From a virus (taxonomy: Duplodnaviria > Heunggongvirae > Uroviricota > Caudoviricetes), in IMG/VR virus record IMGVR_UViG_2703718837_000001: a stretch of DNA of 49,704 bases. One strand, 5' to 3'. This document shows positions 39,085 through 40,510 of this stretch, one piece after another; within the stretch, counting starts at the first letter, position 1; the number at the start of each line of letters is the position of its first letter. The translations under genes and the position numbers were made by a program. The notes beneath the pieces were generated by a model. That model had not been told where the DNA came from. It saw nothing but the letters and a program-made list of their open reading frames with translations, and did not search any database.

Positions 39085-39374
39085 TGAGTGTCGTGCAATA
39101 GATGTATTATTTGTGATGAAAAATAATGCAGAGGGATATTGTTACTTTAAGATGGATATCAATAATCGATACATAAATTAAGTTAGCAATAAACTATTAA
39201 CTTAAGAAATAATGCAGATGGTGAACTTATCTCTGACTTTTCAGCTATACACAATAAGTTAGGGATAGCTTATAAAAAGTTGATTAATTGATATAAGTCA
39301 ATGGGAGTATTCTTGTTTACTTTCCGTTCTCGTGGTAACTTCTCGCCGGTTTTTGTTTTTCTGGGATGATTCTT

Positions 39375-39887
39375 ATGTCTAAAAAGTATACTTTATGCGC
39401 TCTTGTTGTATCTGCAATTCTTCTTTCTGGGTGTCAATCTAGCGGTGCTGATTATGCTGCCGATGTTTATGATACCGCTCAATTGAATTCGAAGCAGGAA
39501 ACAAAGACAGTCAATATTATCTCTGTGCTTCCAGCTAAAGTGAAAGTTGATAATAAAGCTAATAAAGAAGCGGCACAGACATTTGGTGCGGTACTGGGAG
39601 CTGTTGCTGGGGGCGTTGCCGGTTATAATGTTAAAGGCACATCGACACTGGGTGCTGTAGCTGGCGGTACTGGTGGTGCGGCTCTTGGTGCAGCGACTGG
39701 TTCTTTGGTTAGTGATAAAACAATTGTTGAAGGTGTTTCACTGACTTATAAAGAAGGAACTAAGGTGTTCACTTCAACTCAAGTTGGTAAAGCATGCCAG
39801 TTTACAACGGGGCTTGCTGTGCTTATTTCAACTAAAGATAATGAAACTCGAATTCAGCCAAATGCTACTTGTCCAGAAAAGAAATAA
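39375..39887 (+). CDS. SlyB-like outer-membrane lipoprotein (glycine-zipper)
   Basis: MSKKYTLCALVVSAILLSGC lipobox (the track start at 39366 adds MIL). ADVYDTAQLNSKQETKTVNII parallels SlyB GDVYTASEAKQVQNVSYGTIV. Gly-zipper GAVLGAVAGGVAGY...GAVAGGTGGAALGAATG. Confidence 0.75.
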   Translation: MSKKYTLCALVVSAILLSGCQSSGADYAADVYDTAQLNSKQETKTVNIISVLPAKVKVDNKANKEAAQTFGAVLGAVAGGVAGYNVKGTSTLGAVAGGTGGAALGAATGSLVSDKTIVEGVSLTYKEGTKVFTSTQVGKACQFTTGLAVLISTKDNETRIQPNATCPEKK

Positions 39888-39890
39888 TTT

Positions 39891-40430
39891 ATGAATAAAA
39901 TTATTTTATTTCTAATCTTTTCTACGTTTAGTGTAGGCACTGCCTTGGCTAACTCGTTGCAAAGTCAAATTGCTGCTATTGCTCAAGCGGAAAATGAAGG
40001 GCGAGCTAAAGAGCAGCAAGCTGAGGATGCCAGAAAAGAACTTATTCGCCAACAAGCACAAGCTGAACGTATTAGAAGAGAAAAAGCAGCATCTGCCGCT
40101 GCTGCACGCGAAAAACAGCGTGTTGCTGCAGAAAATGAACGTAGAGCGAAACGAGAAGCCGAGCTAGCAAATGACAAGAAGCGAGATCAAGCTTATGAGG
40201 ATGAGCTTCGCAAGCTGCAACTCGAAAGCATGAAACTCGAACTGCAAGCAAAAGCGGCTCGTGTCCAGCGAGAAAACGATTTTATAGAGCAGGAGTTGAA
40301 GGAGAGAGCAGCTAAGACAGATGTAATTCAGTCTGAGGCTGATGCAAATAGAAATATTTCTACAGGAAGTAAAGATTTACTGCAAAGCGAAGGAAAAGCT
40401 AGAGAGAAGAAAGCTAGCAGTTGGTGGTAG
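39891..40430 (+). CDS. Secreted charged coiled-coil protein (TolA-like composition)
   Basis: Signal peptide MNKIILFLIFSTFSVGTALA, then 150 aa of A/E/K/R/Q helix, ending KKASSWW. Starts 4 nt after the lipoprotein stop. Confidence 0.65.
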   Translation: MNKIILFLIFSTFSVGTALANSLQSQIAAIAQAENEGRAKEQQAEDARKELIRQQAQAERIRREKAASAAAAREKQRVAAENERRAKREAELANDKKRDQAYEDELRKLQLESMKLELQAKAARVQRENDFIEQELKERAAKTDVIQSEADANRNISTGSKDLLQSEGKAREKKASSWW

Positions 40431-40454
40431 TAATCACTACGATTGCGAGCATAC

Positions 40455-40479
40455 TGTCACAAATGACAACTCGTAGAAT
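40455..40479 (+). promoter_or_regulatory. Late-promoter-like element for the pmgC-tub-pmgB-sit operon
   Basis: TGTCA-caaa-TGACA inverted repeat, then 6 nt after ATGAC a TAGAAT -10 hexamer. Confidence 0.55.
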
Positions 40480-40504
40480 CTGTTAACAAACTAGATTCTA
40501 CGAG
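40470..40504 (+). repeat. Perfect 12-bp-arm inverted repeat in the operon leader
   Basis: CTCGTAGAATCT-N11-AGATTCTACGAG. Overlaps the -10 hexamer and ends 6 nt before the pmgC ATG. Confidence 0.8.
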
Positions 40505-40510
40505 GTTTCA

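Follow-up and report, generated by a model that had tools for sequence, protein, structure and literature searches.

A yfgH-yfgI-like gene pair at the sim locus of P7-type P1-like phage-plasmids

The gene pair and the sim slot

The DNA analyzed here (the window) is the whole 49,704-nucleotide stretch of the IMG/VR virus record IMGVR_UViG_2703718837_000001, which is a P1-like (Punavirus) phage-plasmid. In the place where phage P1 has the superimmunity genes simABC, the window carries a cassette of two genes related to the yfgH-yfgI pair of the Escherichia coli chromosome. The first gene encodes a predicted glycine-zipper lipoprotein and the second encodes an exported helical protein, which is called the partner below. 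The two open reading frames (ORFs) are separated by 3 nt (TAA ttt ATG), and not by 4 nt as an earlier note on this sequence had stated. The coordinates of all features are listed in Table 1.

The cassette is already known from phage P7 and is not new DNA. The earlier note had missed both this and the paralogy to yfgH-yfgI. The region is 99.1% identical to positions 49417-51037 of P7 (GenBank AF503408), where the genes are annotated as upf50.5 and upf50.0. The lipoprotein is 99.4% identical to P7 Upf50.5 and the partner is 100% identical to P7 Upf50.0. The two loci have the same junctions and the same neighbors, and there is no structural difference between them. The P7 annotators labelled the pair as being of unknown function and similar to E. 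coli K-12 proteins. RCS47, phi456, JL22, and SJ46 show 99.0-99.4% DNA identity to the region. In PLSDB, the cassette was found in 168 plasmids (146 from Escherichia and 22 from Salmonella), all of which are at least 99% identical, and 166 of the 168 copies span at least 80% of the segment. The cassette is also present in 182 of 5426 complete E. coli genomes (about 3%).

Homology to P1 ends at position 39082 of the window, inside the operator Oc4, and restarts at 40459, one base before the late promoter LPsit. The alignment with the annotated P1 locus shows 92-98% identity as far as 39082. Between these breakpoints, 1376 bp in the window replace 1513 bp of P1, which comprise PsimA, simA, simB, simC, and the predicted pmgC promoters. 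Because the same breakpoints enclose both, the cassette and the sim segment are true alleles. The placement of the cassette in the sim slot by the earlier note is confirmed: it is an exact replacement of the P1 simABC segment. The low GC content that the note had remarked on was also observed. The segment has 40.3% GC and its 281-bp leader has 31.3%, versus 46.5% for the window, and the sim segment of P1 has 33.4%. To the left, the immI stretch (ant/icd/c4, 37535-39082) is 92% identical to P1 and ~99% identical to P7, and the flanks are 98% identical to P1. This divergence from P1 fits a P7-type immI specificity travelling with the cassette.

The cassette is transcribed away from c4, as described before; the C4 RNA is on the minus strand and the cassette is on the plus strand. 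The accompanying statement that simABC of P1 are co-oriented with c4, and that the cassette is therefore in the opposite orientation, was incorrect. In the P1 record AF234172, simA, simB, and simC are on the same strand as pmgC-tub-sit and divergent from c4. Therefore, the cassette and sim are co-oriented, and no inversion took place.

No sim accompanies the cassette elsewhere in the window. A tblastn search with SimA, SimB, and SimC against the 49.7-kb window returned chance matches only (E>=0.12), and SimC has no match in the records of P7, RCS47, SJ46, phi456, and JL22. Neither cassette protein is similar to SimA, SimB, or SimC. Among phage records, SimC is encoded in 7 and the lipoprotein in 11 P1-like ones, with zero overlap. 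The full-length P1-type sim segment is present in 137 PLSDB plasmids, versus 168 with the cassette. About 160 PLSDB plasmids match only the first 214-238 bp of the sim segment, and thus have other alleles. P1-like phage-plasmids were reported to have eight hypervariable regions of low GC content, of which the sim region is one, and its alternative cargo was given no function there (PMC9603915). The sim genes of P1 are non-essential for lytic growth (PMC10695390). The cassette resembles Sim of P1 in its locus between Oc4 and LPsit, its orientation, its Sec-exported products, its low GC content, and its place in a dispensable region. It differs from Sim in that there is no sequence similarity, in that it has two genes instead of three, and in that no exclusion phenotype is known for it.

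Two further alleles of the slot were observed. The P1-like IncY plasmid NZ_CP057567 of Escherichia fergusonii (locus L146, 3099-5245) has a third Oc4-LPsit allele in the same orientation. It encodes a 163-aa protein sharing the signal peptide and the N-terminus of SimA, a 168-aa protein with a signal peptide, and a 352-aa SH3-domain protein. The P1-like contig L029 (IMG/VR UViG_2744054872_000001) has a divergent yfgHI-like allele (84% and 80% identical). In L029, an extra ORF of 419 aa (7389-8648) is inserted between the DUF5384 gene, which corresponds to the partner gene, and pmgC. Its product has a hydrophobic N-terminus and a nuclease-like domain (DUF559/REase_MTES_1575), and it weakly resembles PDC-S37 and Hhe of PADLOC. 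This ORF may be a defence gene.

Table 1. Positions of the cassette and of the features beside it in the window
Feature	Positions	Strand	Basis or remark
icd, immI gene	38532-38753	-	
C4 antisense RNA, immI operon	38801-38886	-	Rfam RF01695, 69.6 bits, E=6e-13; orientation reference, outside the cassette
c4	38804-38880		transfer of P7 annotation
C1 repressor operator Oc4/Op(c4)	39068-39084	-	2 mismatches vs the C1 operator consensus; P7 and P1 annotations agree; left junction of the swap
Allelic cargo segment, 1376 bp	39083-40458		breakpoints from blastn, P1 locus vs window
AT-rich non-coding leader and putative promoter region, 281 bp	39085-39365	+	no ORF of at least 40 aa
Predicted YfgH-family SlyB-like glycine-zipper lipoprotein, 173 aa	39366-39887	+	P7 Upf50.5
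Predicted YfgI-family (DUF5384) exported all-helical protein, 179 aa	39891-40430	+	P7 Upf50.0
Late promoter LPsit of pmgC-tub-pmgB-sit	40460-40479	+	-22 box and TAGAAT -10; P7/P1 annotation transfer; right junction
Strong hairpin, perfect over 12-13 bp	40470-40504	+	RNA fold -29.2 kcal/mol, z=-5.4

On the left of the cassette, ant1/2 are further immI genes on the minus strand. On the minus strand upstream of the C4 RNA, Rfam gives an isrK-like match at 38913-38994, which is sub-threshold (43.7 bits versus a gathering score of 50) and overlaps the c4-a1b1 target element (38955-39007, 54.6 bits). On the right, LPsit is followed by pmgC, tub, pmgB, and sit. An inverted repeat, TGTCA-CAAA-TGACA (40455-40468), coincides with the annotated -22 box. 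The hairpin in Table 1 overlaps the -10 element of LPsit. It belongs to the right flank, beyond the breakpoint, that P1 also has, and it may hinder read-through from the cassette.

The lipoprotein and its helical partner

The lipoprotein has a lipobox, L20-S21-G22-C23, followed by Gln24 at position +2, and it has GxxxG/AxxxG repeats at residues 70-112. Its true start is probably Met4 (39375), which agrees better with the homologues. Homologues of the lipoprotein number 357, and many of them are named "glycine zipper 2TM domain-containing protein". The identity to K-12 YfgH is 66.7% over 171 aa (E=2e-82), and the nearest chromosomal relative is no closer than about 75% identical. In an alignment of 35 sequences, the window lipoprotein keeps all 33 invariant columns, which include Cys23, G74, G78, G82, G104, G108, Cys144, and Cys169.

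The profile of these 35 family members matches SlyB (PDB 7OJF) over the full length with E=2.7e-9. Searches of the PDB with single sequences returned nothing for either cassette protein, and only the family profile reached SlyB. The scores of the lipoprotein to the individual Pfam zipper models are under their cut-offs. Foldseek with the model of the lipoprotein gave SlyB (7ojf_A) as the sole significant match (E=2.3e-6, probability 1.00). The model has helices at 64-88 and 95-113, which form the zipper hairpin, between strands. It was used only for the order of the secondary structure elements and for the match to SlyB, the latter being backed independently by the sequence profile. The order of elements is the same as in SlyB (7OJF/7OJG), that is, lipid anchor, beta strands, glycine-zipper hairpin, and beta strands, although the identity is only about 24%. 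SlyB, an outer-membrane lipoprotein under PhoPQ control, forms ring-shaped nanodomains that enclose outer-membrane proteins. The sequence evidence assigns the product to the YfgH family as a predicted SlyB-like glycine-zipper outer-membrane lipoprotein. The earlier note had recognized the SlyB-like glycine-zipper character, which is supported here; its label was too coarse, and the relationship to YfgH was missed.

The turn of the zipper hairpin (window residues 88-97, alignment columns ~89-100) has a basic residue in the window protein and in 9 of its closest homologues (NV-KGT or NT-KSG). These homologues include the lipoproteins of the P1-like, island, and prophage copies described below. 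In most of the remaining sequences of the alignment, among them the core YfgH cluster of E. coli, the turn has G instead (NV-GSG). The K/R in the turn is a group-specific change. It would be located at the tip facing outward, provided that the hairpin crosses the membrane like that of SlyB.

Membership in the TraT family was considered and rejected. The score to the TraT model (Pfam PF05818) is 22.1 bits versus the cut-off of 31 (E=1.5e-4), which is below the threshold, and the Foldseek match to TraT (9fs5_A) has E=0.06, probability 0.28, and TM about 0.2. A partial match remains in the hhalign comparison of the lipoprotein family with TraT, with a probability of 85% covering only 73 columns of the zipper region. 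TraT, the surface-exclusion and serum-resistance protein of the F plasmid (9FS5, decamer), is also an outer-membrane lipoprotein with Gly/Ala-rich membrane helices beside a beta-sandwich, and the local similarity is weak. TraT is oligomeric, and mobile elements have repeatedly co-opted members of the chromosomal family to which it belongs (PMC11733297). It differs from the cassette lipoprotein in being ~70 residues longer, in having three membrane helices and an extracellular ring, and in having no helical partner gene.

Database labels for these genes are partly misleading. The PHROG family of the lipoprotein, phrog_1277, is labelled "DNA methyltransferase", and the label has been copied in RefSeq phage records. 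In phi456, the two genes are labelled "minor tail protein" and "tail tip protein". The mislabelled phage records are NC_050152, NC_042128, NC_031129, and OR339795. These methyltransferase and tail labels are a spreading mis-annotation, being incompatible with the lipobox, the glycine zipper, and the homology to SlyB and YfgH.

The partner has a Sec signal peptide ending in GTALA|NS and a mature chain of 159 aa, which is rich in A, E, K, R, and Q and ends in SSWW. The earlier description of a secreted A/E/K/R-rich helical protein ending in WW is thus accurate. The match to Pfam PF17358 (DUF5384) covers profile positions 4-145 of 145 with 147.8 bits versus the cut-off of 25 (E=3e-43), and the partner is 47.5% identical to K-12 YfgI. 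Its predicted membership in the DUF5384/YfgI family is clear. AlphaFold2 modelled the partner as one unbroken helix of residues 3-178 (predicted local distance difference test, pLDDT, 88). In this model, the mature protein would be ~24 nm long if fully extended. The N-terminal motif SLQxQ..A.AQAE is conserved. Residues 36-95 constitute an ER/K-rich spacer with 8% hydrophobic and 48% charged residues, and its length varies among homologues. The C-terminal half is conserved and heptad-like, with an aromatic end.

Host yfgH-yfgI and copies on other mobile elements

The chromosomal relative of the pair, annotated as yfgH and yfgI, was found by distant blastn matches in 5420 of the 5426 complete E. 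coli genomes. The K-12 homologues are not YfjS and YfjT of prophage CP4-57; blastn of E. coli genomes gives yfgH/yfgI. In K-12, yfgH-yfgI sits between yfgG and guaA. The phage pair and K-12 YfgH-YfgI share the gene order, the tight gap, the lipobox, the glycine zipper, the Cys pair, the signal peptide, and the conserved C-terminal domain. They differ in the phage-plasmid location and in the unrelated AT-rich upstream region. In addition, the partner in the mobile group ends in WW, while host YfgI ends in WF(N/K), and the mobile lipoproteins have K/R in the hairpin turn.

The linkage of the two genes is strict. A DUF5384 profile search of one genome per species found 50 loci (L092-L141) in gamma-, beta-, and alpha-proteobacteria. 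In all 50, the DUF5384 gene is immediately preceded by a co-directional ORF for a YfgH-like lipoprotein; three of them had been flagged "no" by the script, where the stop-to-stop ORFs merely overlapped beyond the threshold. The linked loci are from Enterobacterales, Pasteurellaceae, Vibrionaceae, Pseudomonas, Aeromonadales, Shewanella, Nitrosomonas, Parvibaculum, and Commensalibacter. All mobile copies examined also have the lipoprotein gene followed by the DUF5384 gene. This strict linkage argues that YfgI is a functional partner of YfgH. YfgI is not mentioned in the sole mechanistic study of YfgH found (bioRxiv 10.64898/2025.12.22.696046).

YfgH fractionates with the outer membrane (bioRxiv 10.64898/2025.12.22.696046; PMC3219608). 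The same reports describe that deletion of yfgH leads to sensitivity to sodium dodecyl sulfate/ethylenediaminetetraacetic acid (SDS/EDTA), increased uptake of N-phenyl-1-naphthylamine (NPN), a leaky outer membrane, and loss of outer-membrane proteins. They also describe that yfgH is strongly induced on depletion of LpxC, LptD, or BamA, and that leaky overexpression rescues those depletions. SlyB-like rings or oligomers of YfgH are only predicted, and clsA mutations suppress the phenotype of the yfgH deletion (bioRxiv 10.64898/2025.12.22.696046). According to the same study, YfgH and SlyB do not cross-complement, and their suppressors differ (clsA versus mla). Salmonella Typhimurium has no yfgHI orthologues (PMC11619404), although 22 Salmonella plasmids carry the cassette.

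Related pairs recur on other mobile elements. In E. coli (beside aspS/yecD) and Salmonella, a related pair adjoins the gene for tail-fibre assembly in a prophage whose tail module is of the P2 type, and in the Salmonella prophage, an anti-repressor gene is on the other side of the pair. Another related pair is in an island rich in insertion sequences. A further pair is on a Salmonella contig of ~102 kb (L142), which is not P1-like and encodes a Rep3 initiator, a tail fibre gene, an endolysin-like gene, and exonuclease VIII. Nothing close to the backbone of this contig was found in phage records, and in plasmid records only 3% of it, the Rep gene, was matched. Classed by PHROG hits only, it is a predicted phage-plasmid of another kind.

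A partner ending in WW is common to the copies of the P1-like elements, the island, and the prophages, and the pairwise identity of these DUF5384 proteins is 61-84%. Among these copies, dN/dS is 0.03-0.16, with dS saturated (>1). Therefore, both genes are maintained by strong purifying selection.

Not all apparent phage carriers are genuine. A prophage integration site is located between yfgI and guaA, so that many prophage calls include the host yfgG-yfgH-yfgI ends (L030-L091). This inclusion inflates the apparent number of phage carriers. Of 80 IMG/VR loci kept, 61 were host yfgHI at the edges of prophage calls and were discarded as phage carriers. Phage TL-2011b (JQ011317, 41360-42935) was likewise discarded as an independent carrier. 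In both cases, the genes are host yfgG-yfgH-yfgI, 99-100% identical to K-12.

Possible functions of the cassette

The cassette is a moron of P7-type P1-like phage-plasmids with a diverged copy of yfgH-yfgI, and we consider it about an even call that it stabilizes the outer membrane of the lysogen. In this case, a promoter of its own in the AT-rich leader would drive the pair independently of the late operon, so that it would be expressed in the lysogen. The lipoprotein would be acylated at Cys23 and then passed to the Lol pathway; sorting to the outer membrane is predicted because the residue at +2 is Gln and not Asp. The glycine-zipper hairpin would insert into the membrane, and the lipoprotein would oligomerize into rings of the SlyB/YfgH type around outer-membrane proteins and lipid patches. 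The partner would be exported by Sec, cleaved after Ala20, and act with the lipoprotein in the periplasm as a long helix with conserved ends and an ER/K-rich spacer. The extra dose of a stabilizer under prophage control would make the envelope of the lysogen sturdier against detergents, chelators, bile, and biogenesis stress. Hosts without yfgHI, such as S. Typhimurium, would gain the whole function from the cassette. If incoming phages are affected at all, this would be a secondary effect.

The retention of YfgH biochemistry by the phage pair is inferred because of the homology, the retained invariant residues, and the purifying selection. The earlier note had offered two interpretations, envelope-stress protection of the lysogen and superinfection exclusion. 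The former is better supported now owing to the reports on YfgH, and the latter, as proposed there, rested on position only.

Several observations weigh against a stabilizing role. Expression is the weakest link, since the upstream region is unlike that of the host genes and holds one weak promoter match. The scan of the cassette leader for sigma-70 promoters found no convincing site, with no more matches than in shuffled sequences; the one consensus promoter-like site is at 39139-39166 (TTGTTA-16-AATAAT, a 9/12 match). No experiment on the phage copies was found in the literature. The AlphaFold2 monomer of the lipoprotein is of low confidence (pLDDT 53). The sole phenotype reported for YfgI is sensitivity to nalidixic acid (PMC3536626). 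E. coli lysogens already have chromosomal yfgHI; an extra dose may be redundant, so that the phage pair could have a new function. The mobile copies are a group by themselves, and the identity of their DUF5384 proteins to K-12 YfgI is only 46-54%. The sim genes in P1 and the DUF559-type nuclease gene in L029 are hints that the slot collects anti-phage cargo. As for the leader itself, it is unrelated to the upstream region of host yfgH, and its comparison with the upstream regions of other yfgH-like copies found no conserved promoter or regulatory motif, except for the last ~90 bp, which are common with the L029 allele.

A second explanation is superinfection exclusion or receptor masking, the main idea of the earlier note, which we regard as possible but rather unlikely. 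Here, rings of the lipoprotein and the periplasmic helix would sequester or cover outer-membrane receptors or lipopolysaccharide (LPS) patches, or would block DNA injection at its periplasmic step, replacing Sim. The allelic relationship to simABC, with the same junctions and the same orientation, is in favor of this explanation. All three alleles of the slot examined (Sim, this pair, and L146) encode Sec-exported proteins, and the L029 allele adds a DUF559 or restriction endonuclease-type gene with weak similarity to PDC-S37 and Hhe. In the complete phage records checked, sim and the cassette are never together. YfgH is reported to contact many outer-membrane proteins, and the K/R of the mobile group lies in a hairpin turn predicted to face outward. 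On the other side, there is no similarity to the Sim proteins, and neither cassette protein matches the defence models of PADLOC-DB v2 at E<=0.01. All family-invariant residues are kept, which speaks for a conserved ancestral biochemistry. A 67%-identical YfgH is expressed in nearly every E. coli, yet these bacteria stay phage-sensitive. The adsorption site of P1 and P7 is the LPS core and not an outer-membrane protein.

The similarity to TraT is remote and partial, and it bears on exclusion in both directions. It is detected by hhalign over part of the lipoprotein, but the match is below the Pfam cut-off and not significant with Foldseek. Janssens et al., Nature 2024, reportedly place the beta-domain of SlyB in the periplasm. 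The beta-domain of TraT is, in contrast, extracellular (PMC11733297). TraT is nevertheless a precedent for a chromosomal outer-membrane lipoprotein that mobile elements co-opted for exclusion (PMC11733297). There is also a broader version of exclusion, to which we give a little less credence than to exclusion by this cassette. Temperate enterobacterial phages may have recruited and diversified the module of YfgH ring and YfgI helix for a new kind of exclusion or receptor masking at the level of the envelope, interchangeably with Sim in P1-like phage-plasmids, and the WW-ending group would then be a neofunctionalized lineage.

A role in the lytic cycle is improbable. The pair would keep the outer membrane intact during virion assembly or until the spanins act, or would limit vesicle loss, and it would be expressed with the late operon. 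The cassette is directly upstream of, and co-oriented with, pmgC-tub-pmgB-sit, but LPsit is downstream of the cassette, so late transcription begins past it. Overexpressed YfgH stabilizes the outer membrane; however, the homologues are non-phage core chromosomal genes, present in nearly all E. coli genomes, and other phages hold the pair at typical moron positions, not in lysis cassettes. The sim genes of the same slot are dispensable for lytic growth (PMC10695390). The combination of an outer-membrane lipoprotein and a periplasmic helical protein superficially recalls two-component spanins (Rz/Rz1). This candidate was ruled out, as the partner has a cleavable signal peptide (ALA|NS) and not an inner-membrane anchor, the lipoprotein is a folded SlyB-like protein of 150 aa, the homologues are chromosomal, and there are no adjoining lysis genes.

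The least probable explanation, which we consider very doubtful, is a neutral passenger, that is, host DNA acquired by illegitimate recombination at a hot spot and without a phage function: the region is hypervariable and of low GC content (PMC9603915), and many "phage" copies in databases are host yfgHI at the edges of prophage calls, but the examined copies have two intact ORFs, the 168 plasmids carry nearly identical cassettes, dN/dS is low between divergent mobile copies, no closely related chromosomal donor was found, and the pair recurs on unrelated phage backbones.

Stabilization of the lysogen envelope thus remains the preferred explanation. The relationship to yfgH-yfgI provides a testable identity for two genes of "unknown function" on ~168 sequenced P1-like plasmids and in ~3% of complete E. 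coli genomes; many of these elements spread resistance genes. The cassette, a copy of a host outer-membrane stress module, is the commonest cargo of the sim slot, ahead of sim. The phage copies are natural variants of the module, and they provide a natural gain-of-function setting, S. Typhimurium being without the host genes. Should the pair exclude phages, this would represent a new principle of exclusion. Should it harden the envelope, this would be a new trait of lysogenic conversion, with relevance to the tolerance of bile, detergents, and antibiotics. The main interest lies in the recurrence of the module on phages and in the putative partnership of YfgH and YfgI.

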